A DNA stretch of 59,341 nucleotides from Deltaproteobacteria bacterium (GTDB lineage Bacteria; Myxococcota_A; Polyangia; Polyangiales; Houyiibacteriaceae): NCBI GenBank assembly GCA_034670305.1, contig JAXMNT010000046.1, forward strand, positions 1 through 59,341. The letters run 5' to 3'. The notes beneath the pieces are model-generated. The model saw nothing but the letters and a program-made list of their open reading frames with translations. It was not told the DNA's origin and searched no databases. The translations under genes were made by a program, and so were the position numbers. Positions 26,932-59,341 of the stretch are shown here, piece after piece. Position 1 is the first letter of the stretch; the number at the start of each line of letters is the position of its first letter.

Positions 26932-27000
26932 GACCGAATGCTGGGGCCGTTCGGCGCCGAAGGGAATGGGGGCCGCGCAGCGCGGATCCGAAGGACAGGA

Positions 27001-27160
27001 GCTGTCGCTATATCTGGTGCTGTAGCTGTAGCTGGTAGCTGTCGCTGTCGCTGTTGCTGTCGCTGTAGCTGGTAGCTGTTGCTGTCGCTGTCGCTGTCGC
27101 TGTTGCTGTCGCTGTCGCTGTCGCTGTCGCTGCCGCTGCCTCTGCCTCTGCCTCTGCCTC
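27001..27160 (+). repeat. imperfect hexamer array (CTGTAG/CTGTCG/CTGTTG, then CTGCCG, then CTGCCT)
   Basis: read directly; preceded by TCCGAAGGA at 26987-26995. Confidence 0.92.
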
Positions 27161-27320
27161 GACTCGCGGCCAAGGATGCGGACGTCCCCCGGCACCGTGT
27201 GGTGCGACGGAACTCCCCCACACTCCCCCTCAACTCCCCCGAACTCTCCCCAAAACGAACCAGGAGCTCGCGCTGGGCTGGCACCCAACAGGAGCGTCCC
27301 GGGCACCAGCAAGACTTCAG

Positions 27321-27524
27321 GCCCGAGCCGAAGCCGAATCCGAATCCGACGCCGACGCCGACGCCGAAGCCGACGCCGACGCCGAAGCCGAAGCCGAAGC
27401 CGATGCCGACGCCGAAGCCGACGCCGACGCCGAAGCCGAAGCCGACGCCGATGCCGATGCCGAAGCCGATGCCGAATCCGAAGCCGAAGCCGCAGCCGAA
27501 ACCGAATCTGACGCCGAAGCCGCC
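27321..27524 (+). repeat. imperfect hexamer array (CCGAAG/CCGACG/CCGATG/CCGAAT) x~33
   Basis: read directly; lies upstream of the four-helix-bundle leader. Confidence 0.92.
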
Positions 27525-27593
27525 CTTGATCCTCCAGCGTGCGCCCCTTCTCGTGGAGGTTGGGCGCTGGCCCGATGGATGGTCCAGCGTAGC

Positions 27594-27740
27594 GGTCGGC
27601 GGGGTGGCGCCTCAAGGAGGCCTTCGGCCCGGCGGGATGCCCGCCGCTTCGCTGGCGCGCTTCGCGCTTGCTCGTCCTTGACCCGCCACCCCGCCGACCA
27701 CTGGGGGCGCTTCGCGCCCTCGGGCGAGTTCACGCTCGGC
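27594..27740 (+). ncRNA. putative structured leader (RNA or ssDNA) of four-helix-bundle gene A
   Basis: perfect 16-bp IR 27594-27609/27684-27699 enclosing a TCAAGGA/TCCTTGA stem and hairpins GGCCTTCGGCC, CGGCGGG-ATG-CCCGCCG, GCGCTTCGCGC; then GGGCGC-TTC-GCGCCC. Confidence 0.55.
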
Positions 27741-27760
27741 GCACACAAGGCAGGTTCTCG

Positions 27761-28072
27761 ATGCTGGTATTCGACAAGTCGCTTCTACTTCTCTCGCTCC
27801 TGGTGCGTGAGGTCTTGCCTCGCATTCGCGAGGCGTCGCTGAAGTCGCAGCTGCGGCGGGCCGCGCAGGCTGTTCCTCTACTGATTGCGGAGTCTCGGAG
27901 TGCGCGGGGCGGGAGGAACCCGGACGGGTTCTCGCGTGCTCTCGGGGAGGCGCGCGAGGTAAAGGCCGCCCTGCAGGTCGCGGCGGTCATGGGGTACGTC
28001 GAGGCAGGGGAGGACGTGTACGACCTCGCGGACCACGTCTGCGCGATGTTGTTCAAGCTGAGTCGGTCCTAG
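27761..28072 (+). CDS. four-helix-bundle protein (23S rRNA-IVP/Avd-like), copy A
   Basis: 103 aa; SLKSQLRRAAQAVPLLIAE, FSRALGEAREVKAAL, VCAMLFKL. Confidence 0.8.
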   Translation: MLVFDKSLLLLSLLVREVLPRIREASLKSQLRRAAQAVPLLIAESRSARGGRNPDGFSRALGEAREVKAALQVAAVMGYVEAGEDVYDLADHVCAMLFKLSRS

Positions 28073-28079
28073 GCCGCGC

Positions 28080-28107
28080 GGGCGGTGCGTCTCCGGACGC
28101 ACTGCCC
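28080..28107. terminator. 12-bp hairpin right after four-helix-bundle copy A
   Basis: GGGCGGTGCGTC-TCCG-GACGCACTGCCC (one G-U pair); weak U-tract. Confidence 0.45.
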
Positions 28108-28127
28108 TGTTCCCGGCATCCCGACCT

Positions 28128-28287
28128 CGAAGCCGAAGCCGAAGCCGAAGCCGAAGCCGAAGCCGATCCCGACTCCGAATCCGAATCCGAAGCCGAATCC
28201 GAAGCCGAAGCCGACGCCGAATCCGACGCCGACTCCGACTCCGCTTCCGCTTCCGCGTCCGCGTCCGCTTCCGCGTCCGCTTCCGTC
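28128..28287 (+). repeat. imperfect hexamer array (CCGAAG/CCGAAT/CCGACT, then CCGCTT/CCGCGT)
   Basis: read directly; between copy A and the convergent EGF gene. Confidence 0.92.
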
Positions 28288-28294
28288 CCTGATC

Positions 28295-29641
28295 TCAGAT
28301 GCGGCGGCGGCGGCCGGCGACGCAGAGGAACAGAAGTACGCCGGCGCCGGGGAGGGCGCCGGTGCCCGTCGTCCGACACTCACACCCGCTGCTGCTGGGC
28401 GGTGGCGTGCCGGGGCCGGCGTCGGTGCCCATCGGGCCTGCGTCGGTGCCCATCGGCCCGGCGTCCGTACCCATCGGTCCGGCGTCCGGGCCGGGGCCGG
28501 CGTCGGGGTCGACGGCGTCGGGGAGACACGTCACTCCGTCGCCGGTGAAGCCGTCGTTGCACGCGCACTCGAAGGTGCCGGCGGTGTTCGTGCAGGTGGC
28601 GTTCGTGTCGCAGTCGTCGGTTCCGTCCGCGCACTCGTCGATGTCCGGACACGTGACGCCGTCGCCCATGAAGCCGTCGTTGCACGCGCAGCTGAAGTCG
28701 CCGTCGCCGTTGGTGCAGGTCGCGTTCTCGTCGCAGTCGTCGGTTGCGGTCAGGCACTCGTCGATGTCCGAACACGCGCCCGCGCCGTCGAGCACGTAGC
28801 CCTCGTCGCAGGGGCAGCTGAAGGTGCCCGGTTCGTTCACGCACATCGCGTGTTCGCCGCAGTCGTAGTCGACGCATTCGTCGATGTCCTCACAGCGGGT
28901 TCCGTTGCCCATGTAGCCCTCGTTGCATTCGCAGGAGAAGCCGGGGACTTCGTTCGTGCAGGTCGCGTTCTCGTCGCAGGCGGTCTCGTCCGCGCACTCG
29001 TCGATGTCGACGCACGCGGCGCCCGCGGTCGGGCACTCGTAGCCGTCGTCGATCTCGCACGAGGAACATCCATCGTCCGCCATGAGGTTGCCGTCGTCGC
29101 ACGCTTCGCCGTCGCCCAGAATGCCGTCGCCACAGCCACCGGTGATCGACGCGAAGTCGATGCGCGCGTCGTTCGCGGCCGTCCTCAGGTCCGTGCCGAT
29201 GTAAACCGTGGTGCTGGCCGCCGTAGCGACGAAGTTCCCCATCACTTGCATGTAGCCCGGCACGATCGTCTCCATCGCGACAAGGGTGCCGGTCCGGTTG
29301 CCCAAGCGGATCTCTGCGAGCCCCCCGTTGCCAGCCACGAAGTACGACACGGTGTAGGTGCCGCCGATGTTGGTCGGGACGGCCTGGGTGATGCCTTCGA
29401 CGTGTCCCGCTTGGGTGCGCGGCGAACGGGCGCCTTCGTAGAGGCCGGGGTCCGTTCCGGTCGCCCAGTAGTCGCAGTCGATGCCGACCGAGCTGGAGTC
29501 GCTGCCCCACCCGGTGGGGGCGGTGTTGTGCGGAAGGGCGGGGCAGTCCTCCATGTCGCCGTTCATGAAGAGGTTCTGCGCGTCCACGGGGGACGCGAAC
29601 GCGACGAGGACGAGGGCACCAAGCGCACGCTGCAAGTTCAT
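28295..29641 (-). CDS. calcium-binding EGF-repeat surface protein with myxobacterial Cys-rich repeat and MYXO-CTERM
   Basis: signal peptide; [16 protein letters not shown]; four DIDEC...C..NA.C.N..G.F.C.C..G(F/Y) repeats; GCECR-TM-RRRR. Confidence 0.9.
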
Positions 29642-29698
29642 GCCGCGGATTCTACATGCGCCGTGAGAACGAGGGAACGAGGCTCAGCGCTGCAGCCC

Positions 29699-30184
29699 TC
29701 AGCGCTGCAGCCAGGCGCGTGCGACTTCGGTGTGCAGCGGGAACGCGAGTTCTTCTTCGGTGCTCGTGAACACCACGATCTCAGTGGTCTCGACCGTGGG
29801 TTCGAAGCCCTCGAGCGCCTTCGGATCGAGCTCGGTGTCGAGCACGCCGAAGATGAGCAGGTTCGAGCCCGCGCTGTGCACGGCGCGCAGCTCGTAGCCC
29901 TGAGCCGGTGTGTCGATGCCGGTCTCTTCGAGCAGCTCGCGGGCGCAGGCGTCTTGCCAGGTCTCGTCGAAGTCGACGAAACCGCCGGGGAGGGCGAGTT
30001 TGCCGACCTCCGGCTCGATGCCGCGTCGGATGGTGAGCAGGCCGCCCCCGGTCATGGGGATCAGCGCGACGGCGACCGGCGTCGGGTTGCGGTAGGTCAT
30101 GGCGCCGCATTCATCGCAAGCGCGCGGCCAGGCGTCGTTGCCGTAGGCGGAACCACAATGGTGGCAGTGAACGAAAGCAGTCAT
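29699..30184 (-). CDS. NUDIX hydrolase with N-terminal zinc ribbon
   Basis: CHHCG...CDECG, YRNP, Nudix box [23 protein letters not shown]. Confidence 0.92.
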
Positions 30185-30310
30185 CGCGAAGAACACTACC
30201 AGGCGCGTTCGCCCTTCGCTGAGGTTCTCACGGCTGCCGTCCTGCCTGCGCCGTCCTGCGCCTGCGCCGACTTCCCCGCGTCGGCGGCCAAGGGGTGCTA
30301 GGAGAAGGCG

Positions 30311-30730
30311 ATGAACATCCTCTTCCTCTGCGTCGCGAACTCGGCCCGAAGTCAGATGGCGGAAGCGCTGGCGCGGGCGCGGTTCGGGGACCGGGCGACG
30401 GTGCAAAGCGCGGGCTCGCTGCCCTCGCGGGTGAACCCGTTCGCGCTCGCGGTCATGGCGGAGCGCGGCGTCTCGATGGAGGGCCACGCGTCCAAGTCGG
30501 TGGACTCGATCGATCCCGCGACCGTGGATCTCGTGATCACACTCTGCGCCGAAGAGGTGTGTCCGGTGTTCCTCGGCAAGGCGCGTCGGCTGCACTGGCC
30601 GTTCCCCGATCCGGCGCCGCCGGGGGCGGACGACGTGAAGCGGGAACTCGTGATGGGGCGGTTCCGCGAGGCCGCAGATGGCATCGACGCGAAGCTGGCG
30701 GCACTCGAGTCCGAGCTGCCAGCCGGTTGA
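30311..30730 (+). CDS. arsC: arsenate reductase / LMW-PTP family
   Basis: [16 protein letters not shown]-loop, [26 protein letters not shown] upstream. Confidence 0.85.
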
Positions 30731-30747
30731 GGATTGCTCGAGCCGCC

Positions 30748-31302
30748 TCAGGCGGGGTGGCAGCGCCAAAACGTGAAGGTGACCTCGTCGTCGACTCGGC
30801 GTTCTTCGTCGATGACGAACCCCGCCGCTTCGCACGCAGCCCGGAAGGCGACGCACGAGCCATCGTGCTGCGGCACGCTCGCGTCCTTGAGCGCCGCAAA
30901 GGTTCCGCCCGACCGCAGCACCCGGCGCACCTCGGCCATGCCGGCGGCGTGGTCGGTCCAGTGGTCGAACGTGTCGAACGCAATCACGAAGTCCGCGAAG
31001 TCGTCGTCGACCGGAAGCGCTTTGGCGTGGCCGAGCCGGAAGTCGAACCGGTCGCGCGCAGGGTGCTCCGCACACCACTCCTTGGCGATCTCCAACATGC
31101 GCGGCAGCGGGTCCACACCGACGAGCGCGCCCGACGTGACCCGCACCGACGCATGTCGCAGCGCTTCCCCAGTGCCGGGCCCGATGTCGACGACGTTGCT
31201 GTCCGGTTGGAGATCGAGCGCCTCGATCCCAAGCCGATTGGTGGCGTACGCGCCGTACTTCTCTGCGTACCAATCACAGGCTTCGATGGTCCATTTCGTC
31301 AT
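30748..31302 (-). CDS. class I SAM-dependent methyltransferase
   Basis: VDIGPGTG, GVDP...ML, FDHW.D...EVRRVLRSGG. Confidence 0.85.
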   Translation of the reverse strand: MTKWTIEACDWYAEKYGAYATNRLGIEALDLQPDSNVVDIGPGTGEALRHASVRVTSGALVGVDPLPRMLEIAKEWCAEHPARDRFDFRLGHAKALPVDDDFADFVIAFDTFDHWTDHAAGMAEVRRVLRSGGTFAALKDASVPQHDGSCVAFRAACEAAGFVIDEERRVDDEVTFTFWRCHPA

Positions 31303-31369
31303 GCAGGAATCGTTGCGCACGAGAGGGCGGGTTGGCCAACTCATTGTGAGGGTGCGCTACCTTCGGCCG

Positions 31370-32485
31370 ATGTCTTCGGTGGCGTTCGAGATCGATGCAC
31401 CCCCGGTCGCCTTCTTTCACTCCAACCCGTACGCCGTGGTCTTCTCGCCGAACGGCTCGCGGTTGGCGGTGGGCACGGGCGGTTGGTACGGAGGCGGCGG
31501 GGTTTCGCTCGTGGACCTGCAGACGGGGAGGGACACCACGGTTCGATTCGTCGTTCCCATGCACGCCGAGGGCGTGGTGGTGGCGCCTTTTGACTGGGGC
31601 GAGCGCCCTCTGACCATCTCGGGGGTGGCCTTCGATGCGTCTGGCGATTTTCTCTCGGCGTGCGCTTGGTCGAGCGGCCAGCGTCCGGCACCCGCGTTCC
31701 TCTTTGGGGTGGCAGAGAACACACTGGAGCATCTGGAGACCTTTCCCCCGCCCCCTCCGCCCGACCCCATCTTTGACATCTGTACGACCGGACTGTGTTT
31801 CTTGAGCGGCCGCCTCCACCTTCGTCACAACGCACGTCGACTCGACCAGGTCTTCTCGTCAGTGGCCCTGCCCGCGGACGTGGACACGGCAGTGCGCCAT
31901 GGTCATCGCGCCCACCGTCGCGTGGCGTGCGCGGGAGAGGAGTTGATCACCGGTGGAGGAGGCTCGCTGAAGCTTGGTGGGTGGAGCTCTCTGGAGGGCG
32001 AGACGGAAGCGTTCAAAGCTGCGCCAGGGTTGGTGGTAGGCCCGACCGCTCGCCAGGTCGCTGCACCCAGTGCGCGGGTCACCGCGGTCCTCGCCCGCCC
32101 GGATGGAAAGTTGGTCACCGGCGGACTGGAAGGCGAGGTCGTGCTCTGGGAACGCGAAGAGGAATGGCGTCCGGTGAAGCGGCTCCGGGGAGAGACCAAG
32201 CGGGAGCGGCCGACGGGCGACGGCGCGTGGGCGACTTACCACCCGGAAAGTGTGGTGGGGCTGTGTGCACTCGAAGACGGCCGGTTCTTCTCGGTCGATG
32301 CGAGCGGCGAAGTCCTCGAGTGGCATGGCGATTCGGTCGCGCGTTCCCACGTCCTCCCGCGACCCGGCACACCGCGCTGTATTGCCGTGCATCCGGAGAC
32401 GCCGCACGGGCCGCTGCTCGCGGTCGGGGTGAAGGTTGACCATCCGCCGGACCATCGCGGGTACGTGGCGTGCTTCTCGGTGTAG
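31370..32485 (+). CDS. WD40-like beta-propeller protein
   Basis: VFSPNGSRLAVG, AFDASGDFL, RPDGKLVTGGLEGEVVLW. Confidence 0.7.
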   Translation: MSSVAFEIDAPPVAFFHSNPYAVVFSPNGSRLAVGTGGWYGGGGVSLVDLQTGRDTTVRFVVPMHAEGVVVAPFDWGERPLTISGVAFDASGDFLSACAWSSGQRPAPAFLFGVAENTLEHLETFPPPPPPDPIFDICTTGLCFLSGRLHLRHNARRLDQVFSSVALPADVDTAVRHGHRAHRRVACAGEELITGGGGSLKLGGWSSLEGETEAFKAAPGLVVGPTARQVAAPSARVTAVLARPDGKLVTGGLEGEVVLWEREEEWRPVKRLRGETKRERPTGDGAWATYHPESVVGLCALEDGRFFSVDASGEVLEWHGDSVARSHVLPRPGTPRCIAVHPETPHGPLLAVGVKVDHPPDHRGYVACFSV

Positions 32486-32511
32486 CGGGGCGACTCCGAA
32501 GGAGAGCATGG

Positions 32512-32865
32512 GCCGTCGCTGGTTCTGCAGCTGAGCCTGTGCTGATTCTGTAGCTGTCGCTGTCGCTGATTCTGTAGCTGCCTCTGCCTCTGCCTCTGTC
32601 TCTGCCTCTGCCTCTGCCTCTGCCTCTGCCTCTGCCTCTGCCTCTGCCTCTGCCTCTGCCTCTGCCTCTGCCTCTGCCTCTGCCTCTGCCTCTGCCTCTG
32701 CCTCTGTCTCTGCCTCTGCCTCTGCCTCTGCCTCTGCCTCTGCCTCTGCCTCTGCCTCTGCCTCTGCCTCTGCCTCTGCCTCTGCCTCTGCCTCTGCCTC
32801 TGCTTCTGCTTCTGCTTCTGGACCCGACACTCGGGCACGGGCACGGGCACGGGCACGGGCACGGG
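32512..32865. repeat. compound hexamer array: degenerate CTGNNN lead-in, (CTGCCT)x37 including two CTGTCT variants, (CTGCTT)x3, then (CGGGCA)x5
   Basis: read directly; preceded by TCCGAAGGA at 32495-32503. Confidence 0.95.
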
Positions 32866-32935
32866 TTCTTCGGCATCGCTTGTCCTTCAGCGGTTCTGCT
32901 TGTCCGGCACCCGTGTTGCTGGTTGACTGCTGCCG

Positions 32936-33415
32936 GTGAAAGAAAAGCATGTCCGGATCCGCATCGAGCAGTGTCTGGCGCTCGCCAAAGCGTCGAACTG
33001 TCCGCGCCGCACGTTCGGTGCGCTCCTGCTCGACCCGGTGCGCAACGTGGTGCTCATGGACGGGTACAACGGCGGGCCCCGCGGCGGCGGTCACCTGTGC
33101 GGTGGCGACGTGTGTCTGCGGGACACGATGGAGATCAAGTCCGGCACCCGCATGGAGATCGGCTGCCACCACGCGGAGATGAACGTGGTCTGCAACGCGG
33201 CGGCGAGTGGGGTCGCCACCGCCGGGGCGTGGCTCATCGTGACGGGTGAGCCCTGCACGATGTGCGCGAAGCTTCTGCACCACGCGGGCATCACGCGCGT
33301 GATCATCGTCGAGGGCGGCTACATGGGCGCGAACGGGGTGCAGTACCTCGAAGCGCACGGCGTCGAAGTCATCGCGGTCGAAGGGCCGAAAGACCCGCGC
33401 CTCTCGCAGGTCTGA
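32936..33415 (+). CDS. dCMP deaminase family protein
   Basis: GYNG, HAEMN, PCTMCAK zinc motifs. Confidence 0.92.
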
Positions 33416-33484
33416 TCACCTGCATGCGATGCATCTTCATGAAGGGCACGCGTTCGATGAACGGCGCACTGTGAACGGCACAGC

Positions 33485-35551
33485 ATGAGCCGGTCACCCA
33501 CCGAACAAGACGCGCTCTGGCTCGGCATCGCGCAGTTCGTCTGCAGCATCGCGGTGCTCACGCCGGTGTGGTCGCCGGAGCTCTTGCCGCTGCTCGACTG
33601 GCCGCAGCACGAAGCGATGGTGCGCGCGCTCGCGGATGTGACCACGGAACCGTTCCGCCCCTACTACGCGTTCGAACCCCAGCTGAGCACCTACCTCGGC
33701 TTCTACGGCGTCGGCGCGTTGCTCGCCAAGGGCATCGGGGTCGAGGCGGCGCTGCGGGTGCTCGTCTCGCTCGCGTTCGTCGGCACGCCGCTGGCGCTCG
33801 AGCGGCTGCTCAAGGTCTTGAAACGTTCGCCCTGGGCGAGCTTGCTCGCGTTCCCGATCGTCTTCTCGTGGCCCTTCTACATGGGCTTCGGCGCGTACGT
33901 GCTCGCGGTGCCGCTCGCGCTCTGGACCATCGCCGCGTGCGTGCGCCACGCCGAGTCGGACGCGCCGCAGATCGGGCGCATCGAAGTCGTCGTCAGCTCC
34001 ACGCTGCTCTTCCTCACCCACGCGCTCGCCTTCGGCGCGGCGCTCTTGGTCGCTGGCCTGGCGCTGGCCATCTTTCATCACTGGGTGCGCTACAAACGCC
34101 TCGCGCGTGTCGCGTTGGCACTCGTGCCTTCGTTGCTCTGTTTCGGGTGGTGGTTCGGGACCAACTTCGGCGCGCAGCACGAAGACCGGCTCGGTGCGGC
34201 GACCGCATCGGTGCACGCACAGGGTGGCGGCGGGACCGAGTTCGAGAGCTTCGAGCGCAAGGTCGCGGACCTGCCGATGTGGTTCAACGAAGCGTTCCGG
34301 GACGAGAGCGACCGGCAGATCCTGGACGGCTGGCTCGTCGCGCTGGGGCTCGTGTTCTTCGTCGGCTTCTTGTCCGCGATGTGGCGGCGCAAGAAGGGGG
34401 TGCGCGACATCCCCTGGCAGACCTGGGTCGTTGGGCTGCTCCTGATGATGCTGTACTGGGTGATGCCGATGAGCGCGGCGAACATCTGGGCGATCAGCCC
34501 GCGCATGATCCTGTTCGGCGCCTGCGGTCTCGCGCTGCTCGTGCCGAACCCGCCCGGCCGCTACTGGCAGAACGCGCTCACGTACGCGCCCGTGGTCGCG
34601 CTGACCTGTTGGGTGGGCTGGGTGAACCACCAGAAGTTCGGTTCGATGGACGAGGACGCACGCAACCTCGAAGCGACCCTGGCCGAAGCGGAACCGGGGC
34701 AGCGGCTCTACGGATTGATGTACCACCCGGCGTCCGCAGAGCTCTCCCAGGCGGTGATGTTGCACTGGGGCTCCTACTACATGGCGCAGCGGGGTGGACT
34801 GACGGGTTTCACGTTCATCAACAGCCCGACCGTGCCGCTCCGGCTGCGCACCGTCGGCTCGAGCCCGTACCCGGGGCGCCGCGGCGAGTGGGAACACGCG
34901 CGGTTTCGGTACGATCTCTACGGGGACTTCTACGACTACTTCCTGACCCACGGCAGCACCAACCTCGGGCCGCGCATCGGTGCGCCGCGTGGCGCCATCG
35001 AACAGGTGACCAACCACGGGCGGTTCTCGCTCTGGCGCAACACCCAGCCGCGGCGCACCGTCGCGTACTCGTTTCGGGAGAACGTGCACCACGCGGTCGC
35101 GTACGTGGGCACCGGGGAAGGGCGGACCGCGTGCGCGCCCTGGGCCGACGGCCGGCTCCAGTGTCCGAACGAGGAGTGGACGTGGGTCGGGCCGAGCGAG
35201 CAGACCTTCGACGGCATCGTCGTGCCCTGCACGTGGGCGCATCCGGTCGCTGGGGAGCCGCTCGAGATCGTGTACGACGCGGTGCCGCCGGGCGACGTCA
35301 TCGTCGGGTTCGCGGGGGTCGCCGACAGTGGCCAAGCCGCGCGGGCGGCGGACGTCGATCTCGCGGTCCGCATCGGGGAGCTGCGGGTGCCGGTGATCTC
35401 GGTGGGGTCGAACCGTGGCTACCGGCGCTTCGAGATGCCGATGCCCCAGAGCGACCAGGCGCAGCGGGTGACGTTCCGAATCACCGCCGAGAGCGACGCG
35501 GCGCGCCACTACTGCTTTGGTGCCACGTTGTTCCACGAAGCGTCCGACTGA
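33485..35551 (+). CDS. polytopic membrane protein, possible GT-C-type glycosyltransferase
   Basis: PLLDWPQH N-terminal loop, ~10 TM segments, soluble C-terminal domain; adjacent to polysaccharide genes. Confidence 0.6.
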   Translation: MSRSPTEQDALWLGIAQFVCSIAVLTPVWSPELLPLLDWPQHEAMVRALADVTTEPFRPYYAFEPQLSTYLGFYGVGALLAKGIGVEAALRVLVSLAFVGTPLALERLLKVLKRSPWASLLAFPIVFSWPFYMGFGAYVLAVPLALWTIAACVRHAESDAPQIGRIEVVVSSTLLFLTHALAFGAALLVAGLALAIFHHWVRYKRLARVALALVPSLLCFGWWFGTNFGAQHEDRLGAATASVHAQGGGGTEFESFERKVADLPMWFNEAFRDESDRQILDGWLVALGLVFFVGFLSAMWRRKKGVRDIPWQTWVVGLLLMMLYWVMPMSAANIWAISPRMILFGACGLALLVPNPPGRYWQNALTYAPVVALTCWVGWVNHQKFGSMDEDARNLEATLAEAEPGQRLYGLMYHPASAELSQAVMLHWGSYYMAQRGGLTGFTFINSPTVPLRLRTVGSSPYPGRRGEWEHARFRYDLYGDFYDYFLTHGSTNLGPRIGAPRGAIEQVTNHGRFSLWRNTQPRRTVAYSFRENVHHAVAYVGTGEGRTACAPWADGRLQCPNEEWTWVGPSEQTFDGIVVPCTWAHPVAGEPLEIVYDAVPPGDVIVGFAGVADSGQAARAADVDLAVRIGELRVPVISVGSNRGYRRFEMPMPQSDQAQRVTFRITAESDAARHYCFGATLFHEASD

Positions 35552-35665
35552 GCCCGCCCCCGCGACCAGGGAGAAGAGGCGGTTGAGGGGCCCTTCCGAA
35601 GGTGCCAAGCTCTGCCGCCGTCGCGTTTTCCCGCTTCGCCAGGTCGATTCTCTCGGCATTTCCGT

Positions 35666-40840: not shown

Positions 40841-40869
40841 CGCCGTCGCCCGTCGCCGCGAGCAGAGGG

Positions 40870-41066
40870 CTGTCTCTGCCGCTGTCGCTGTCTCTGCCGC
40901 TGCCGCTGTCTCTGCGGCTGTCGCTGTCTCTGCTGCTGCCGCTGTCTCTGCCGCTGTCTCTGCGCCTGTCTCTGCGGCTGTCTCTGCGGCTGTCTCTGCC
41001 GCTGTCTCTGCCGCTGTCCCTGCCGCTGTCCCTGCCGCTGTCCCCGCCGCTGTCCCTGACTCCGGC
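40870..41066 (+). repeat. imperfect hexamer/dodecamer array (CTGTCT-CTGCCG) between convergent genes
   Basis: read directly; runs up to the M20 peptidase stop codon. Confidence 0.92.
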
Positions 41067-42491
<1,425 letters not shown>

Positions 42492-42530: not shown

Positions 42531-42740
42531 TGTCGCGGTCGCGGTCGCGGTCGCTGGTTCTGCCGCTGGTTCTGCCGCTGGTTCTGCCGCTGCTTCTGCC
42601 GCTGGTTCTGCCGCTGCTTCTGCCGCTGGTTCTGCCGCTGCTTCTGCCGCTGCTTCTGCCGCTGATTCTGCCGCTGAATCTGCCGCTGATTCTGCCGCTG
42701 ATTCTGCCGCTGATTCTGCCGCTGATTCTGCAGCTGATTC
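42531..42740 (+). repeat. (GTCGCG)x3, then dodecamer array CTGCCG-CTG(G/C/A)TT
   Basis: read directly. Confidence 0.92.
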
Positions 42741-47964: not shown

Positions 47965-47971
47965 ACGGCGC

Positions 47972-49533: not shown

Positions 49534-50565
49534 TCACCACTTGCCGTCGAGGGCATCGAGCACCTTCTTGACGAAGGGCACGCCGACCGGCTCGTCGTCT
49601 TGGAGCGGCAGGGTGCTCTTCTCGGTGTCGATGTGCTTCACGCTCTTGACGGACGCGAGCGGACCGGGCGTCGCGTGCGTGGGCATGTGATCGTCGTAGA
49701 GGTCGAACCACGGCAGCCCGTGTTTCGCGTACGTCTTCGCGGTGACCGGTGTCTTCAGGGCCGCTTCGCCGGTGATCTCGCTCCACTGCATGGCGTCGAC
49801 GATGTGTACGAAGACGCGACCGCTTCGGGTGACGTCCCACGTGCTCACGCCGTGGGGGTCCGGGTAGATCTTCTGCTTCATGCGGCCACCAGCAGCGACA
49901 CCCATCGAAGCGGACTTGCTGGCCCGCGCGCGACCGGCGGACGCCCCCGAAGGGCCGGCCATCGGCGCGGGTGCACAAGGCGCGCACGGGACTGGGCCTC
50001 CGCTCGAGCCGCCGAACGACGAGATGCTTCGGACCTGGGGCGGGGGCCGATGGAACCGACCGGGCTTCGGCTCGAACGCCATGAGCTGCAGTCCGCCCAC
50101 GCGTTCTTCGCCGGTGACCTGGCCTTCGACGGTGTAGCCCTGGCCAAGCGGCATCGCGACGAACTGACGAATGGTGCCGTGCCCGTTGTGGATGCCATCG
50201 AGCCACGGCTGCGGCGGCGTGACCACGTAGTCTTGCGGGCTCGTGCGCAGCGCGTCGCTCCAGGGCTGGCCGGTGAGCGCGCAGACCTTGCCGACGCCCA
50301 CCTTGAGCGCGAACGGTTTCCACGCAGGGCCAGAGAAGCTCAGCCACATGGCCTCGCGTTGAAATAGCGGTAGGAAAACGCCGCCCTTGTCGAGCCACTC
50401 GCGCGGCACGGTGTCTGCGTAGTCGGAGACCTTGCGGACTGGGAGGGCGCCGAGGCCGGGCGGCAGCGGGTAGGCGCGGCCGTCGTCCGGAATGCGGAGC
50501 GTGCGCTGGAAGGTGATGCTGAGTTCGCCGAAGTGAAGGGCGGTCTGGTCGTTGTGAAAGGTCAT
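49534..50565 (-). CDS. conserved hypothetical protein
   Basis: 343 aa; FQRTLRIPDD, LPPGLG, QREAMW, QPWLDG, RQFVAMPLG.GYTVE.Q.TG, GGRMKQKIYPD. Confidence 0.75.
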   Translation of the reverse strand: MTFHNDQTALHFGELSITFQRTLRIPDDGRAYPLPPGLGALPVRKVSDYADTVPREWLDKGGVFLPLFQREAMWLSFSGPAWKPFALKVGVGKVCALTGQPWSDALRTSPQDYVVTPPQPWLDGIHNGHGTIRQFVAMPLGQGYTVEGQVTGEERVGGLQLMAFEPKPGRFHRPPPQVRSISSFGGSSGGPVPCAPCAPAPMAGPSGASAGRARASKSASMGVAAGGRMKQKIYPDPHGVSTWDVTRSGRVFVHIVDAMQWSEITGEAALKTPVTAKTYAKHGLPWFDLYDDHMPTHATPGPLASVKSVKHIDTEKSTLPLQDDEPVGVPFVKKVLDALDGKW

Positions 50566-50609
50566 CTCGGTTGTCCTGTTTGGGTGGTCCCTTGCGGGTC
50601 GATTCCCAT

Positions 50610-50636
50610 GACGAGACCTGAACCCGCGCTGTCACA
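50610..50636 (-). promoter_or_regulatory. putative ECF-sigma promoter of the hypothetical gene
   Basis: TGTGACA-N16-CGTC on the minus strand. Confidence 0.5.
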
Positions 50637-50701
50637 CGTCTGGACAAACTTTCTTGCAAACCTCTGTAAACACTCGGGTTTTATGGCTCTCGTACTTTCT
50701 C

Positions 50702-50727
50702 TGTGACAAACCCGAGGCTCGTCCGTC
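50702..50727 (+). promoter_or_regulatory. putative autoregulatory ECF-sigma promoter
   Basis: TGTGACA-N15-CGTC on the plus strand. Confidence 0.45.
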
Positions 50728-50763
50728 CGCGGGTTGGGCTGCGGGGGTCGGAGGCTGTGGCCT

Positions 50764-51690
50764 ATGCTCCGGGCGTTGGACGAGACCGAGTTCAGTGCCG
50801 CGTTGGATCGCGGCGACACGCGTGCGGCGACGACCTGGCTCGTCCGGGCGTACGCCACCGATGTGCTCTCGCTCTGCCGATCGCTCGTGCGGGACGAAGC
50901 GCTCGCCGAGGACCTTGCCCAGGACGTGTTCGCGAAAGCGCTCGCGGGGCTCTCGAGTTTTCGCGGCGAGTCTTCCCCCCGGCGATGGCTGATGTCGATC
51001 GCGCGCAACCACTGCCTGGACGCGTTGCGGCGCGGCACGAAGCGGCCGTGGGAACTCGGCGACGAGGATTCGGTGAGCGAGACGGTGGACCCAGCGCCCA
51101 TCGGCGCCGACCTGTTGATGGATCGAGACGAGGTCGCGGCGGCGCTCGCGTCGCTCGACGAAGCATCGCGGGCGATGGTGGTGCTCCGGTTTCGACACGG
51201 CCTCGGGTACCCGGAGCTCGCGGACGCGTTTCAGGTGAAAGAGGGCGCGGTGCGCATGCGCATCAGTCGCGCGCTGGCGCGGATGCGGATCGCGCTCGAA
51301 CAACCCTTGGCGGTGCGTTCGATCTCTGGTCCCTCGGGTGCGCGGGCTTCCCGTGCGCGCAGCCCGATGCCGGTACCGTCCGCCCCGCCGGCGCCCGCAC
51401 CGGCCGCACCGCCAAGCCCATCTGCGCCCAGTCCCGCAGCGCCTGAATCGGGCGGTGGCCTGCCACCTCCCGCGGTCCCCCAAGTGCCTCGATCCGCGCC
51501 GGCCGCACCTGGGCCGATGGGCGCGCCGCCTCCGATGGGTGCGCCGCCTCCGATGGGTGCGCCGGCGTCCACGGGGTTTGGCAGGCGCGTCTCGACTTTC
51601 GGCGCGGTGCTCGGCCGTTTGGACGCACCTGCCTCCGCGACCTTCTTGCAGCGGCTCGAAGCGTTCGTGCTTAACGCAGAGCCCACCTGA
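50764..51690 (+). CDS. ECF RNA polymerase sigma factor with Pro-rich C-terminal extension
   Basis: AEDLAQDVF, WL.SIARN.CLD..RR (region 2), Y.ELA......GAVRMRISRA (region 4). Confidence 0.92.
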   Translation: MLRALDETEFSAALDRGDTRAATTWLVRAYATDVLSLCRSLVRDEALAEDLAQDVFAKALAGLSSFRGESSPRRWLMSIARNHCLDALRRGTKRPWELGDEDSVSETVDPAPIGADLLMDRDEVAAALASLDEASRAMVVLRFRHGLGYPELADAFQVKEGAVRMRISRALARMRIALEQPLAVRSISGPSGARASRARSPMPVPSAPPAPAPAAPPSPSAPSPAAPESGGGLPPPAVPQVPRSAPAAPGPMGAPPPMGAPPPMGAPASTGFGRRVSTFGAVLGRLDAPASATFLQRLEAFVLNAEPT

Positions 51691-51742
51691 GCCCATGCTT
51701 CACCTTCTTCCCAACCCTGCCGATCGAACGGCCACCTGACCC

Positions 51743-52600
51743 ATGGGACTCATCACCGAAGTTCAGGCGGGCCCGTACCGCGTGCGCGGCGTCTCGCTCG
51801 GCGGCGTCTACACGTCGATCCAGATCCCGGAGCTCGGGGTGCTGCTGGACGTGGGTCTGCCGATGCGCGCGTTCGCGTCCTCGGACCACATCTTCATCAG
51901 CCATGGGCACGGCGACCACATCGGTTCGCTCCCAGCGCTGCTTGGCATCCGGGGCCTCCTCAGTGGCAAGAAGCCTCCGAAGGTCTACCTCCCGGAACCG
52001 ATCGTCGACACGCTGCTCGCGGCGCTTGCGCAGATGTCGAAGATGCAGCGCTACGAACTCGCGATCGATCCGGTGCCGATGGCGGCGGGCACCGAGGTGC
52101 GTTTGCGGAGCGACCTCTTCGCGCGCGCGTTCAAGACCCACCACCCGGTGCCCTCACTCGGCTACCTGTTCTTCGACCGGGTCGAGAAACTCCGCGACGA
52201 GTTCAAGAACCTACCCGGCGCCGAGATCGGCCGCCGCCGCAAAGCCGGTGAAGATCTCTTCGACCGCGAAGAACGTCTCGAAGTGGCCTACGCCACCGAC
52301 ACCCTGGTCCGCGTGCTCGACACCGCCCCGGAGATCCGAAACGCCCGCGTGCTCATCCTCGAGTGTACGTTCCTCGACGAACGCAAGACGCTCGAGACCG
52401 CACGCGCCGGTTGCCACATCCACCTCGACGAGCTGCTCGAGATCGCCGACTCGTTCGAGAACGAACACGTCGTGCTCATGCACTTCTCGCAGATCTACAA
52501 ACCGAGCGAAGTGCACGAGATCCTCGCCAAACGCTGCCCGCCGGGTTTGAAAGAAAAACTTGTCGTCTTCGCGCCGAAGCGCGGCCCCTGGCCGGGGTAG
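51743..52600 (+). CDS. MBL-fold hydrolase, RNase Z (TM-type)-like
   Basis: [30 protein letters not shown]. Confidence 0.85.
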
Positions 52601-52606
52601 GGGGCA

Positions 52607-52846
<240 letters not shown>

Positions 52847-52880
52847 TCGGAGGCGAATCCGCTCCGAAGGAGAGGATGAG

Positions 52881-53025
52881 CTGTAGCTGTAGCTGTAGCT
52901 GTAGCTGTAGCTGTAGCTGTAGCTGTAGCTGTAGCTGTAGCTGTAGCTGTAGCTGTAGCTGTAGCTGTAGCTGTAGCTGTAGCTGCCGCTGCCGCTGCCG
53001 CCGCCGCTGCCGCTGCCTCTGCCCC
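52881..53025 (+). repeat. (CTGTAG)x17 perfect, then CTGCCG units
   Basis: read directly; preceded by TCCGAAGGA at 52863-52871. Confidence 0.95.
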
Positions 53026-53158
53026 GTGTCACACCCATCCGGTAGTCTCCCGGCGCTCACGGGTCCGTGCGCCCATTCCCCACCTTCCGGCCCCTTCTCC
53101 CCACCCCGGCCGATGACCCCGGGCCCGCTCCCTTGCGGGCTGCTATGAGGCTCCCCTG

Positions 53159-56200
<3,042 letters not shown>

Positions 56201-56215
56201 CCAGGCGGCTCGGTC

Positions 56216-56602
56216 TCAGTCGGTCAGGGCGCCTTCGATGCGGGCGAGGGCGGCTTCTTCTTGTTCGCGCAGGTGCCCGTCGGCGACGATCGCGATCTGG
56301 GCGGCGCGGAAGATGAGGTCGTGGCGGCGGCACTTGCGCAGCACGGCCAGACACACGAACCAGCCTTGTTCGGGATCGTCGAGCACGCCCTGGGCGAGTT
56401 TGCGGAATGCGTTCTCGAGGCCGAGGTCGGTGGCGCGGGCGAGCGCGGGGTCTTCTTTGACCACCTGCATGAACCGGTCGATCTCGGACTCGGCCAAGTC
56501 GCGGTCCGCGGTGGCCACAAGCGCGAAGGCCGCGGCGACGGCGCGGACGAGCTCGTCGTCGAGCGCGTTCTTCAACTCTTCCCAATCGATCGGCTTGGTC
56601 AT
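56216..56602 (-). CDS. TerB-like (tellurite resistance family) protein
   Basis: ALVATAD..L..SE, IAIVADG.L...EE..L.RI. Confidence 0.75.
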   Translation of the reverse strand: MTKPIDWEELKNALDDELVRAVAAAFALVATADRDLAESEIDRFMQVVKEDPALARATDLGLENAFRKLAQGVLDDPEQGWFVCLAVLRKCRRHDLIFRAAQIAIVADGHLREQEEAALARIEGALTD

Positions 56603-56626
56603 CGGTTGCAGGGTATACCGTGCGTC

Positions 56627-57490
56627 ATGGAACACGTCGTCACTTCTCCCCGACCGCCGTTTCGCACCGCTTCGGGCGCGCTCGAGATCCATCAGGTGCC
56701 TTCGTTCCGGGACAACCTCATCTGGCTCCTGGTTTGCACGAAGACCGGCGCCGCCGCCGCCATCGATGGACCCGAAGCGAAGTCCGCGCTCGCGTACTGC
56801 GAGACGCATGGCATCGAGCTCGGCGCGGTGTTCAACACCCACACGCACCCGGACCACATCGGCATCAACTTCGGGCTCGTGAAGTCCGTGCCGTCGCTGC
56901 GCGTGGCGGGCGCGAAGACCCGTGCGAAAGAGATCCCTGGATTGACGGAAGGGCTGCAGGCGGGCGACACGCTGACGCTCGGCGCGTCGACCGGTCGGGT
57001 CTTGCTCACCGAAGGCCACATCGACGACCACCTCTCGTTCGTGTTCGAAGACGTGGTGTTCTGTGGCGACACCATGTTCGGTGCGGGGTGCGGCTACCTC
57101 TTCGACGGGCCACCGGCGAAGATGATGGGCAGCCTCGCGCAGCTCGCGGAACTCGAGGGCTCGACCCGGGTCTGCTGCGCGCACGAGTACACCGAGGACA
57201 ACCTGCGCTTCGCGTGGAGCGTCGAACCGGACAACGACGCATTGGCCGCCCGCATCCGCGACACGTGGGCGTTGCGCGCGCGGGGGGAGTGTTCGGTGCC
57301 CTCCACGATCGAGACCGAGCGGGCCACGAATCCCTTTCTCCGTCACCACAGCGCGACGTTGCGGGGCCGGGTCGCGGCCGCGTTTCCAGACCAGACGTTG
57401 AAAACCGACCTCGACTTCTTTGCTGCCACGCGAGCGCTCAAAGACCGCAAAGACCACCAGGCCCTGACCGACGCGGACCTGCCTCTCTGA
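56627..57490 (+). CDS. gloB: hydroxyacylglutathione hydrolase (glyoxalase II)
   Basis: DNLIW, THTHPDHIG, GDTMF.AGCG, C.HEYT..NL.FA, PSTI..ER.TNPFLR. Confidence 0.9.
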   Translation: MEHVVTSPRPPFRTASGALEIHQVPSFRDNLIWLLVCTKTGAAAAIDGPEAKSALAYCETHGIELGAVFNTHTHPDHIGINFGLVKSVPSLRVAGAKTRAKEIPGLTEGLQAGDTLTLGASTGRVLLTEGHIDDHLSFVFEDVVFCGDTMFGAGCGYLFDGPPAKMMGSLAQLAELEGSTRVCCAHEYTEDNLRFAWSVEPDNDALAARIRDTWALRARGECSVPSTIETERATNPFLRHHSATLRGRVAAAFPDQTLKTDLDFFAATRALKDRKDHQALTDADLPL

Positions 57491-57506
57491 CGGTGGGGGG
57501 GTCGGC

Positions 57507-57739
57507 GCCGGACTCGGGACTCGGCTTTGGGTTCGGCTTCAGGAGTCAGGTAGAGACAGCAACAGGGGCAGGGACCAGAGACAGCGGCAGGCAGCGGCAG
57601 CGGCAGCGACAGCGACAGGACAGCGACAGGACAGCGACAGCGGCAGCGGCAGCGACAGCGACAGCGGCAGCGGCAGCGGCAGCGACAGCGGCAGAAGCAG
57701 AAGCAGAAGCAGAAGCAGCAACAGCAACAGCAACAGCCT
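57507..57739 (-). repeat. imperfect hexamer array (CAGCGG/CAGCGA/CAGAAG/CAGCAA on +, CTGNNN on -)
   Basis: read directly; minus-strand TCCGAAGGA at 57749-57757 precedes it. Confidence 0.92.
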
Positions 57740-57818
57740 GTAGCCTCTTCCTTCGGAAATCGGCTCCCTTCAATCCTCCGGATTTCGGGAACACCCCAAT
57801 TGTCTGGGGGGGGTTCTG

Positions 57819-57966
57819 GCTCGGCGGCAATTTCATCGTGGCGGAGTGCTCGGTCGCGTCAAGGGTGCCTTCGGCCCCAGCCTTCGGAAGGCTGGCTTCG
57901 CCCTGGACCCGCCCTGCGCTCTCCACCGGGGGCGCACGGGGTGCGCCGCCGAGCAATGTCGCTCTG
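57819..57966 (+). ncRNA. putative structured leader of four-helix-bundle gene B
   Basis: outer stem GTGGCGGAGTGC/GCGCTCTCCAC, TCAAGGG/CCCTGGA, GCCTTCGGC, CCAGCCTTC-G-GAAGGCTGG, GGCGCAC-GGG-GTGCGCC; also a 10-bp IR GCTCGGCGGC/GCCGCCGAGC. Confidence 0.55.
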
Positions 57967-57990
57967 GTGTGTGGCGCGTTGGAGGCTCTG

Positions 57991-58302
57991 ATGATTGTTC
58001 TCGAATCTAGTTTTGTTCTCGTTGGTGAGTTGCGCGGACTGTTGGCTCAAGTTTCTCGCAAGGACCGTTCGCTCGCGGAGCAGATGCGGCGGGCGGCGCA
58101 GTCCGTCTGTCTGAACTGCGCGGAAGCGAAGAACGCGCGGGGCAAGCGGAGCGTCGATCGATTCTCCATTGCCTACGGTGAGGCCAGTGAACTGAAGGCG
58201 GCTCTTCGGTTGGTGCGGCTGTTTCGGTACGCGGAGGTTGGCGAGGAGGTCGAGCGACGCTGCGATGAGGTTTGCGCGATGCTGTATCGGCTCAGTCGGT
58301 AG
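57991..58302 (+). CDS. four-helix-bundle protein (23S rRNA-IVP/Avd-like), copy B
   Basis: RBS GGAGG at 57981-57985; [44 protein letters not shown]. Confidence 0.85.
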
Positions 58303-58329
58303 TCGGCTGCGAGGCCCGCGCGAGTCGCT

Positions 58330-58750
58330 GGCCTCGGCTTCGGCCTCGGCTTCGGCCTCGGCTTCGGCCTCGGCTTCGGCTTCGGCTTCGGCCTCGGCTT
58401 CGGACTCGGCTTCGGCCTCGGCTTCGGCCTCGGCTTCGGCCTCGGCTTCGGCTTCGGCTTCGGCCTCGGCTTCGGCTTCGGCCTCGGCCTCGGCCAGCAG
58501 AGTCAGCAGCAGAGTCAGCAGCAGACACAGCGGCAGAGTCAGCAGCAGAGTCAGCAGCAGAGTCAGCAGCAGAGTCAGCAGCAGAGTCAGCAGCAGAGGT
58601 CAGCAGCGGAGTCAGCAGCGGAGTCAGCAGCGGAGTCAGCAGCGGAGTCAGCAGCGGAGTCAGCAGCAGAGTCAGCAGCAGAGTCAGCAGCAGAGTCAGC
58701 AGCAGACACAGCGGCAGCGGCAGCGGCAGAAGCAGCAACAGCAACAGCCT
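58330..58750 (-). repeat. compound array: (TCGGCY)x~27, then dodecamer AGTCAGCAGC(A/G)G, then CAGCGG/CAGCAA
   Basis: read directly; minus-strand TCCGAAGGA at 58760-58768 precedes it. Confidence 0.93.
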
Positions 58751-58828
58751 GTAGCCTCTTCCTTCGGAAATCGGCTCCCTTCAATCCTCCGGATTTCGGG
58801 AACACCCCAATTGTCTGGTGGGGCTCTG

Positions 58829-58976
58829 GCTCGGCGGCAATTTCATCGTGGCGGAGTGCTCGGTCGCGTCAAGGGTGCCTTCGGCCCCAGCCTTCGGAAG
58901 GCTGGCTTCGCCCTTGACCCGCCCTGCGCTCTCCACCGGGGGCGCACGGGGTGCGCCGCCGAGCAATGTCGCTCTG
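58829..58976 (+). ncRNA. putative structured leader of four-helix-bundle gene C
   Basis: as copy B, but with a perfect TCAAGGG (58869-58875) / CCCTTGA (58911-58917) stem. Confidence 0.55.
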
Positions 58977-59000
58977 GTGTGTGGCGCGTTGGAGGCTCTG

Positions 59001-59312
59001 ATGATTGTTCTCGAATCTAGTTTTGTTCTCGTTGGTGAGTTGCGCGGGGTGCTGGCGGCTGTTTCTCGCAAGGACCGTTCGCTGGGTGAGCAGATGCGGC
59101 GGGCGGCTCAGTCCGTTGTTCTGAACTGCGCGGAAGCGAAGAACGCTCGCGGGAAGCGGAGCGTGGATAGGTTTTCCATTGCTTACGGTGAGGCGAGCGA
59201 GCTGAAGGCGGCTCTTCGGTTGGTGCGGCTGTTTGGGTATGCCGAGGTTGGCGAGGAGGTGGTGCAGCGCTGCGATGAGGTTTGCGCGATGTTGTATCGG
59301 TTGAGTCGCTAG
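59001..59312 (+). CDS. four-helix-bundle protein (23S rRNA-IVP/Avd-like), copy C
   Basis: RBS GGAGG; 103 aa, 7 substitutions relative to copy B. Confidence 0.85.
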   Translation: MIVLESSFVLVGELRGVLAAVSRKDRSLGEQMRRAAQSVVLNCAEAKNARGKRSVDRFSIAYGEASELKAALRLVRLFGYAEVGEEVVQRCDEVCAMLYRLSR

Positions 59313-59341
59313 AGCGGCGCGAGGCCCGCGCGAGTCGCGGG

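Follow-up and report, generated by a model that had tools for sequence, protein, structure and literature searches.

The window analysed here, a stretch of 59,341 nucleotides (nt), is contig C46 (JAXMNT010000046.1) of the 7.93 Mb, 105-contig assembly GCA_034670305.1 of a Deltaproteobacteria bacterium assigned to the Polyangiales, with a G+C content of about 68%. The uvrA product of the window has its closest relatives, at 77-79% identity, in metagenome-assembled genomes labelled Polyangiaceae, Sandaracinus, Polyangiales and Myxococcota, which marks the organism as a Polyangia-type myxobacterium. It contains three copies, termed A, B and C, of a cassette that sits between protein genes and is composed of an array of hexamer repeats, a leader of about 200-260 nt, a gene for a basic four-helix-bundle protein of 103 amino acids (aa) and a GC-rich hairpin, often followed by a second array (Table 1). 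An earlier note, written from the letters of the sequence alone, had pointed to three paralogous genes with shared motifs, to multi-hairpin leaders and to hexamer arrays on their flanks. The paralogues were borne out by translation and profile scores, and the arrays flanking copies A, B and C were recovered with Tandem Repeats Finder (TRF), copy C running off the end of the window. The leader of copy C is 98.5% identical to that of copy B (blastn), and a GGAGG Shine-Dalgarno sequence lies 5 nt upstream of the ATG of copy B. Arrays without a gene, of which the note had counted four or five sites, were located by TRF at four other places in the window.

Table 1. Parts of the three cassettes, and gene-less arrays, in the 59,341-nt window.
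Feature	Position	Strand	Basis and remarks
Distal upstream arrays of copy A, (GCTGTC)n and (CTGCCT)n	27001..27160	.	TRF
Upstream array of copy A, sense-strand (GCCGAN)n, family-A type	27326..27522	+	TRF
Leader of copy A	27523..27760	+	Core 27566-27729; R1 106.3 bits; alifold, covariation
Family-A four-helix-bundle gene (copy A), 103 aa, motif RxxxAxxxLxxE	27761..28072	+	PF05635, TIGR02436
3' spacer of copy A with GC-rich hairpin GGTGCGTC-TCCG-GACGCAC, terminator-like without a T run	28073..28127	+	Alignment of 14 family-A copies
Downstream arrays of copy A, (CGAAGC)n and (TCCGCT)n	28128..28285	+	TRF
Gene-less arrays (CTGCCT)n and (CGGGCA)n	32578..32865	.	TRF; without R1 match or cassette blast match
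Gene-less array (GCTGTCTCTGCC)n	40869..41058	.	TRF
Gene-less array (CGCTGATTCTGC)n	42552..42740	.	TRF
Composite gene-less arrays upstream of uvrA, (TCGGCK)n followed by (AGCTGT)n and (GCTGCC)n	52608..53023	.	TRF; Pfam on neighbours
uvrA	53159-56200		Gene-less arrays 52608..53023 upstream
Upstream array of copy B, sense-strand (GNCAGC)n, then (AACAGC)n	57555..57737	+	TRF (57555-57718) and sequence
Leader of copy B, beginning at CCTGTAGCCTC	57738..57990	+	Core 57815-57958; R1 125.6 bits
Family-B four-helix-bundle gene (copy B), 103 aa, isoelectric point 9.3	57991..58302	+	Profile models, AlphaFold2 model, Foldseek
GC hairpin of copy B, GAGGCCCGCG-CGAGT-CGCTGGCCTC	58303..58336	+	Kept in 12/13 family-B copies
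Downstream array of copy B, sense-strand (GGCYTC)n	58330..58494	+	TRF
Upstream array of copy C, (CAGCAGAGTCAG)n, then (GGCAGC)n and (AACAGC)n	58495..58747	+	TRF (58330-58741 between B and C) and sequence
Leader of copy C	58748..59000	+	Core 58825-58968; R1 132.2 bits
Second family-B gene (copy C), 103 aa	59001..59312	+	93% aa identity to copy B
Start of terminator hairpin of copy C, cut at the contig end	59313..59341	+	Sequence, alignment

The three gene products are four-helix-bundle proteins of the TIGR02436/PF05635 family, to which belong the proteins of 23S rRNA intervening sequences (IVS) and Avd, the accessory protein of diversity-generating retroelements (DGR). Copies A, B and C score 41.9, 54.6 and 52.5 bits against PF05635 (curated cut-off 33.8) and 42.5, 58.9 and 58.3 bits against TIGR02436 (curated cut-off 24). 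The AlphaFold2 model of the copy B protein, built with 30 homologues, has a predicted local distance difference test score of 96.6 and places helices at residues 3-24, 26-48, 52-78 and 85-101. In a Foldseek comparison, the top ranks were taken by BT_0352 (2RLD, template modelling (TM) score 0.88) and Xcc0516 (2GSC, TM 0.82), entries of five chains each, followed at lower ranks by Avd (4DWL, TM 0.74) and by the Avd chains of the DGR ribonucleoprotein (8UB7/8UBE, TM 0.74-0.78). When structures were searched by sequence, 2GSC alone reached an E value of 5.5e-4, so that by sequence as well as by structure the cassette proteins stand nearer to the IVS-protein branch (2RLD, 2GSC) than to Avd. The cassette proteins are basic, with isoelectric points of 9.3-9.4, and gave zero matches in PADLOC, on which ground a defence system was rejected. 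The family motif described for helix 2, GxxRxxxSxxxNxxE (PMC3936711), is retained as RxxxSxxxNxxE in two of the three protein families of this genome, B and D, with Q instead of G at its first position; in family A it reads RAAQAVPLLIAE, in which A takes the place of S and L that of N.

By tblastn with the three window proteins, 37 cassette loci were found in the genome, comprising 14 of family A, 13 of family B and 10 of family D, the last sharing 59-69% aa identity with family B; matches to TIGR02436 lie at 50 places. Within a family, a block of 590-605 nt that holds the leader, the gene and the hairpin is 79-98% identical at the nucleotide level, and the homology ends at the arrays. The upstream gene is co-oriented with the cassette at 22 of 34 loci, and at 10 of 11 in family B. 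Hexamer arrays as such are a trait of the genome, since TRF (period 6, 12, 18 or 24, at least 40 bp) located 1190 of them, equivalent to 2.3% of the DNA. Their placement beside cassettes is a different matter: an upstream array at 180-350 nt was present at 32 of 37 cassettes, in comparison with 70 of the 4184 other genes (1.7%; binomial p ~6e-52) in a crude GC3-based gene set that covers 70% of the genome and makes such baselines approximate. A downstream array within 75 nt was present at 21 of 37 cassettes versus 11.3% of other genes (p ~3e-11), and arrays on both sides at those distances at 17 of 37 versus 0.2%. The enrichment beside arrays that the earlier note had suggested looking for is therefore real, amounting to about 50-fold over other genes at a fixed distance. 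The arrays are also specific in unit and strand. Family A carries (GCCGAN)n on the sense strand upstream at all 12 of the 12 loci with an array within 500 nt, and a downstream array at 4 of 14 loci. Family B carries (GNCAGC)n upstream at 12 of 13 loci and a downstream array at 10 of 13, with CGGCTT as the top sense-strand unit in nine of these ten, and family D is flanked both upstream and downstream by arrays of the (CCGCTT)n type. Across the genome, in contrast, the arrays favour neither strand relative to the genes (155 versus 125, by the same crude gene calls).

The leader is the second constant partner of the gene. Thirty leaders from the three families, aligned with MAFFT, share invariant blocks, and RNAalifold on these leaders gave 27 base pairs. 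Compensatory double changes are borne by 10 of the pairs, which fall in three helices, the outer P1, the long P2 and the inner P4 (TCAAGGR/YCCTTGA). R1, a covariance model of the 140-160-nt leader core, matched 39 places in the genome, and a cross-check placed 35 of them in front of tblastn loci and left four gene-less. Among 50 model-aligned rows from four genomes, of which four weak ones are spurious antisense or off-target matches, 98.0% of cells pair versus 76.3% after shuffling; double changes occur in 18 of 22 pairs, and the covariation score is 0.416 against 0.097 for shuffled and at most 0.095 for slid alignments. Within families the leaders are 84-86% identical, in comparison with 69-76% at third codon positions of the genes. 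Counts per leader are 1.0-3.8 for the motif CTTCGG on the sense strand and 0-0.44 for its complement, and the leader of copy B has four CTTCGG hairpin loops. The leader is thus a conserved multi-helix structure, probably a junction with UUCG-type hairpin caps. The multi-hairpin leader of the earlier note is supported by covariation and less clearly by single-sequence folding, in which the leader of copy A reached a minimum free energy z score of -5.46. On the alifold structures of the separate families, G-U outnumber A-C cells by 224 to 23, a count that is biased by the predictor.

A conserved TTGACCC box in the leader was considered as a -35 promoter element and rejected, because it is the 3' strand of helix P4 and has compensatory variants. 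The exact pattern TCAAGGR..YCCTTGACCC has 31 matches in this genome and three single matches in relatives, none of which is a confirmed leader, and is too strict for other genera. With Rfam 15, no leader in the window was matched at the gathering score, the only match being a tRNA; with permissive filters on 57500-58400, the best match was isrG at 13.8 bits, where the gathering score is 100.

The copies are old, and each is retained under purifying selection. The ratio of non-synonymous to synonymous divergence (dN/dS) is 0.06 in family A (12 copies, dS 0.63), 0.13 in family B (13 copies, dS 0.45) and 0.09 in family D (eight copies, dS 0.53), and a recent burst is not indicated, since dS lies at 0.45-0.63. 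Recombination between copies is seen in the leaders: two family-D leaders bear a B-type inner hairpin, and the B leader has three segments of several nucleotides each that are combined in six ways, with all four combinations present for every pair of segments. The leaders are mosaic, and the copies therefore recombine. Some copies have insertions or truncations. Five loci (C1:200929, C22:10038, C18:54464, C54:5127 and C22:43643) are internal-deletion derivatives without the gene, in which an array and a leader fragment are fused to the terminator hairpin or, at one locus, to the initial codons of the open reading frame (ORF). The proposal of the earlier note that gene-less arrays are non-autonomous copies or scars is sustained for these derivatives; it cannot be generalised, because only few of the 1190 arrays carry detectable cassette remnants. 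Outside the arrays, no conserved sequence, inverted repeat or target duplication was found at the termini of the 37 loci of families A, B and D.

A separate observation on the leaders concerns a hairpin-rich insert of 72 nt (CCAGATTGGGAGGAG...GGGGATGTCCCATCCCC) that splits those of two family-B copies (G000:C28:6971-7042 and G000:C68:36197-36268). A similar insert splits a family-A copy (G000:C19, near 96400), and a 26-nt piece of it is present at about 10 further loci; it may represent a small separate repeat family.

The same architecture is found in other genera of the order, so that the dispersed module described in the earlier note extends beyond this genome. Genes matching TIGR02436 are multi-copy in genomes of the same family, with 32 matches in G012, 17 in G013, 16 in G002 and 15 in G008. 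The matches to R1 and to a second leader model, R2, that were cross-checked in G005, G013, G012, G015 and G027 sit directly upstream of TIGR02436 genes. In G005 and G013, the order is a hexamer (or 12-/18-mer) array, a leader with a GTCAAGG...CCTTGACCC core, the gene, a GC hairpin, and an array or a convergent partner. In G012, a closed genome with 21 leaders or more, an upstream hexamer array was present at 18 of the 19 genes fetched and an R1 match at 16 of 19, with helix P4 varying as AAGGCC/GGCCTT, AACCCC/GGGGTT and AAGGGC/GCCCTT. Among 151 genomes sampled from the order, R2 matched at least 17, spread over 14 of 77 genera and six families and mostly with several copies each, in comparison with at least three among 151 genomes sampled across the phylum; with 21 candidates scored per genome, these counts are lower bounds. 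At eight loci from the further genomes, a four-helix-bundle ORF lies just 3' of the leader in seven, the eighth being cut by a contig end, and an upstream array is present in six, each with a different unit. Among the units found 5' of leaders in other genera are GACACG, CAGTCT, CGTCCG, GGAATC and CCGAGT.

The arrangement of genes in G012 deserves mention in its own right. Three gene pairs converge on a shared hairpin (L103, L104 and L105); each pair joins members of two protein subfamilies, with their own leaders, over one bidirectional GC hairpin, and the members differ in array type, (GCCGAN)n versus (CAGTCT)n. Two single genes, L097 and L102, have inverted flanking arrays.

The reading preferred here, held tentatively and with slightly less than even confidence, is that of a dispersed module of a protein and its leader RNA, either autoregulatory or ribonucleoprotein in nature, which spread in the past, is now retained, and has the arrays as recombination-prone boundaries. 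According to this proposal, the unit would have been copied to many intergenic sites in this Polyangia-type lineage, and its families would have diversified, each with its own leader variant and array unit, with segments still being exchanged by recombination. Leader and gene would be transcribed as one RNA, and the protein, probably an oligomer like its solved relatives, would bind the structured leader of its own family. The outcome of such binding may be autoregulation in cis or a stable RNA-protein particle, by analogy with Avd and the DGR RNA. The arrays may act as recombination-prone edges along which units are copied, converted and deleted.

Several observations weigh against this proposal. 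Old copies under purifying selection are equally compatible with a gene family kept by the host and with a mobile one. As arrays occur genome-wide and are enriched at convergent 3' ends, the association may partly reflect where cassettes are tolerated. The alignment that provided the covariation scores was fitted to the model itself, and many compensatory changes separate families, so that the independent events are few. Thermodynamic support is uneven, with z scores of -1.07 (sense strand) and -2.23 (antisense strand) for the leader of copy B. Within the conserved core, three G-U cells stand against three A-C cells, so that the assignment of the acting strand rests on the UUCG loops and on the shared orientation of leader and gene. 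Consensus scans of both cassettes found neither a sigma-70-like promoter nor a canonical terminator. No RNA run was among the sequencing runs found to contain the sequence. The S and the N of the helix-2 motif have been lost from family A, which would be expected to behave differently if that motif is a nucleic-acid contact. The motif residues are common to families B and D, whose arrays differ, and this counts against a simple recognition of the arrays through the motif.

A rival explanation, considered unlikely and yet the most serious of those weighed, takes the cassette as a mobile or recently mobile element that is copied in trans by a transposase, by a retron-type reverse transcriptase (RT) or by array-guided recombination. 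The arrays would then be a preferred target or a by-product of insertion, and the four-helix-bundle protein an accessory factor of the element. The unrelated contexts of the copies and the sharp end of homology at the arrays fit such an element, as do the internal-deletion derivatives, which keep their ends, and the number of TIGR02436 matches, which ranges from 0 to 50 between genera. ORF-bearing IVSs of 23S rRNA, for their part, are described as selfish and horizontally acquired, with a protein of unknown function (PMC4990558). Synteny is also in agreement: around the homologue of the hydrolase gene upstream of copy B, the loci of 19 relatives have neither a cassette nor a hexamer array, in a comparison that covered 1.5 kb per side, with three loci truncated at contig ends and roughly half of the homologues distant. 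The expectation that loci are not fixed across the clade is thus borne out at the one locus tested, that of copies B and C, with filled and empty sites compared between genera only. When close relatives were sought with the copy B protein in genome contigs, none was confirmed. Reads from four DNA runs over 56900-59341 gave contigs that break inside the arrays, with paralogous copies mixed, and none spans a cassette or an empty site.

Nevertheless, the copies of families A, B and D have no inverted repeats, conserved termini or target duplications beyond the arrays, and their dS values speak against a recent burst, while dN/dS of 0.06-0.13 in all pairwise comparisons indicates that copies are maintained in place. 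Eleven paralogous Y1 transposase genes (IS200/RAYT-like, ~235-249 aa, e.g., C20:45721 and C31:83470) were considered as mobilisers and rejected, with one of the 11 near an array and one of the 11 within 10 kb of a cassette. The window is free of RT genes, as the earlier note had stated, and the three RVT_1 genes of the genome lie on other contigs (G000:C23:86418, C10:168437 and C67:18832). All three are retron-type (PADLOC RT_XIII, 504-517 bits) and none adjoins a cassette, the nearest being about 5 kb from a family-A cassette on C67. The description of the module in the earlier note as possibly mobile is upheld in part: the tested locus is non-syntenic, while no machinery, terminal inverted repeats (TIRs) or target duplications bound the A, B and D copies, and these are old. 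On C67, a solo leader fragment of 64 nt was also observed (C67:22625-22684).

A gene of this family can nonetheless ride in a true mobile element in this genome. A fourth TIGR02436 subfamily, with truncated ORFs, without the R1 leader and with long arrays nearby in at most one of 11 cases, sits in an element, termed E, that resembles a miniature inverted-repeat transposable element (MITE). The reference copy is 611 bp long (G000:C14:16223-16833), and its ends, TAGCAGGTCGCTGAA...TTCAGCAGCCTGCTAG, are sharp, with imperfect TIRs, (C)TAG on both flanks and short subterminal inverted arrays (CCCTTG)n/(CAAGGG)n. The genome holds 149 left ends (63 cut by contig ends) and 118 right ends (67 cut), and 35 paired copies of 181 to 669 bp; the first 125 positions of the window (1-125) are one such end. 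As about half of its ends stop at contig ends, this repeat fragments the assembly. The E element lends the mobile explanation a precedent, being dispersed and having a TIGR02436-type ORF and short hexamer arrays like the cassettes; the A, B and D cassettes, however, lack its hallmarks.

A further explanation, which we regard as distinctly improbable, makes the arrays the ligand of the protein, as DNA or RNA, in the manner of TRAP (the trp RNA-binding attenuation protein) or of a repressor on iterated operators, with family-specific autoregulation and possibly an action on matching gene-less arrays elsewhere. It would account for the family-specific unit and strand of the cassette arrays and for the fact that other genera, too, keep an array immediately 5' of the leader, with units that differ widely, and the rare array classes are in fact largely cassette-adjacent, with about eight of the 40 AGCGGC-class arrays lying upstream of B copies. 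On the other hand, the commonest class, AAGCCG/CGGCTT (426 of the 1190), is overwhelmingly distant from cassettes, and the genome-wide arrays are without strand bias; array length varies from 49 to 440 nt among copies of one family, which is odd for a fixed operator; and the sharing of motif residues by B and D in spite of different arrays points the same way.

It is improbable to a similar degree that the cassettes are an ordinary paralogous family with a cis-regulatory 5' untranslated region, next to which the arrays are incidental, having arisen by slippage seeded by the end hairpins. In family B, the 3' arm of the hairpin of copy B does pass seamlessly into (GGCYTC)n. Arrays also abound in the genome, where one is present in about a third of the intergenic regions between convergent genes (272 arrays in 823 regions, versus 116 in 841 divergent ones, with crude gene calls). 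The array load is moreover a lineage trait, because (TCGGCN)5 occurs at 4799 positions in this genome, at 351 in G012 and at no more than 21 in each of 29 other relatives. Chance proximity, however, does not sit well with the roughly 50-fold enrichment at a fixed distance or with the family and strand specificity of the cassette arrays. These arrays persist, furthermore, in G005 and G013 despite a low load of one counted class, (TCGGCN)5, and the leaderless fourth subfamily rarely has long arrays beside it.

Least probable of all is a self-propagating ribonucleoprotein element, in which the transcript from leader to hairpin would be what is inherited, an oligomer of the four-helix-bundle protein would clamp the leader, in the way that Avd clamps the DGR RNA, and the complex would direct copying into the hexamer arrays at the ends or their synthesis by templating or slippage; if this were true, the thousand-odd arrays would largely be its footprint and the rRNA IVS proteins a special case of such an element type.

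None of the known systems compared here matches the cassettes in full. Genes of the TIGR02436/PF05635 family are placed by the literature in rRNA IVS ORFs (PMC4990558), among Avd relatives (PMC10053308) and in cas loci (PMC3936711); the cassettes are not part of a CRISPR locus. One close likeness is that of the ORF-bearing 23S rRNA IVS, an element of ~0.4-0.8 kb whose sole ORF is a PF05635 protein within a structured RNA. The cassettes, in contrast, are intergenic, multi-copy and outside rRNA, and an rRNA IVS was rejected as their identity, as no rRNA was detected with Rfam in the window, in line with the earlier note, or around four other copies. Whereas an IVS has one long enclosing stem that is cut by RNase III and requires inverted repeats, the cassette has a multi-helix leader 5' of its ORF and arrays that are direct (A, D) or unrelated (B). 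The IVS of Coxiella burnetii, of 428 nt with an S23p ORF, has an ORF reported as decaying (PMC4990558), while the cassette ORFs are under purifying selection.

Avd shares with the cassette proteins the fold, small size and basic character, and acts on a structured RNA encoded beside its gene. The cassettes, however, have no adjacent RT and the genome has no DGR-type RT; a DGR was rejected, as the RTs of the genome are only retron-type and none is adjacent, template/variable repeat pairs not having been searched for. Stand-alone TIGR02436 proteins, such as Xcc0516 (2GSC) and BT_0352 (2RLD), also found in cas loci, belong to the same profile family and are multi-copy in some genomes; neither a leader RNA nor flanking arrays are described for their genes in the literature searched. 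The cassette itself was not described in that literature, the coverage of which leaves subscription journals and supplements aside.

Other dispersed or repeat-associated systems resemble the cassettes in outline. The long direct repeats (LDR) of E. coli and other type I toxin-antitoxin repeats are of ~0.5 kb, with a small ORF and a long structured 5' untranslated region, and are intergenic, dispersed or in tandem. Their product is a small hydrophobic toxin and they are not known to have microsatellite arrays, in contrast to the soluble four-helix bundle of the cassette. In type III toxin-antitoxin systems (ToxIN-like), tandem repeats of ~34-36 nt stand upstream of a gene for an endoribonuclease toxin; this identity was rejected, since the repeat units here are of 6, 12 or 18 nt, PADLOC gave no match and the fold is that of IVS proteins. 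A TIR transposon or MITE was likewise rejected for the 37 loci of families A, B and D, and describes the E element, which differs from the cassettes in its TIRs, (C)TAG flanks, truncated ORFs and lack of the R1 leader.

The interest of the cassettes lies in what they offer for a protein family that is very widespread, with solved structures, and whose function is known only in DGRs. Here the family has two fixed partners, a structured, covarying RNA that is absent from Rfam and phased arrays that change with the protein family, and dozens of natural replicates are present per genome, in several families of one myxobacterial order. This makes the function of the protein addressable through leader binding, array binding and the coupling of expression. 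The cassettes also provide a handle on why some Polyangia genomes fill with hexamer microsatellites, and may constitute a non-rRNA relative of the ORF-bearing rRNA intervening sequences.

Elsewhere in the window, two neighbourhoods stand out. The stretch at 22000-26000 has a lower G+C content, 58-61% versus about 68%, encodes a subtilase (22543-24792, minus strand) and an AAA ATPase (24789-25928, minus strand), and is adjoined by a tRNA gene (26091-26163, minus strand); it may be an island acquired at the tRNA. On the 3' side of copy A, a gene at 28295-29641 (minus strand) encodes a protein of 448 aa with four epidermal growth factor (EGF)-like and calcium-binding EGF repeats, within which a coding repeat of 123 nt was detected by TRF at 28525-28828.

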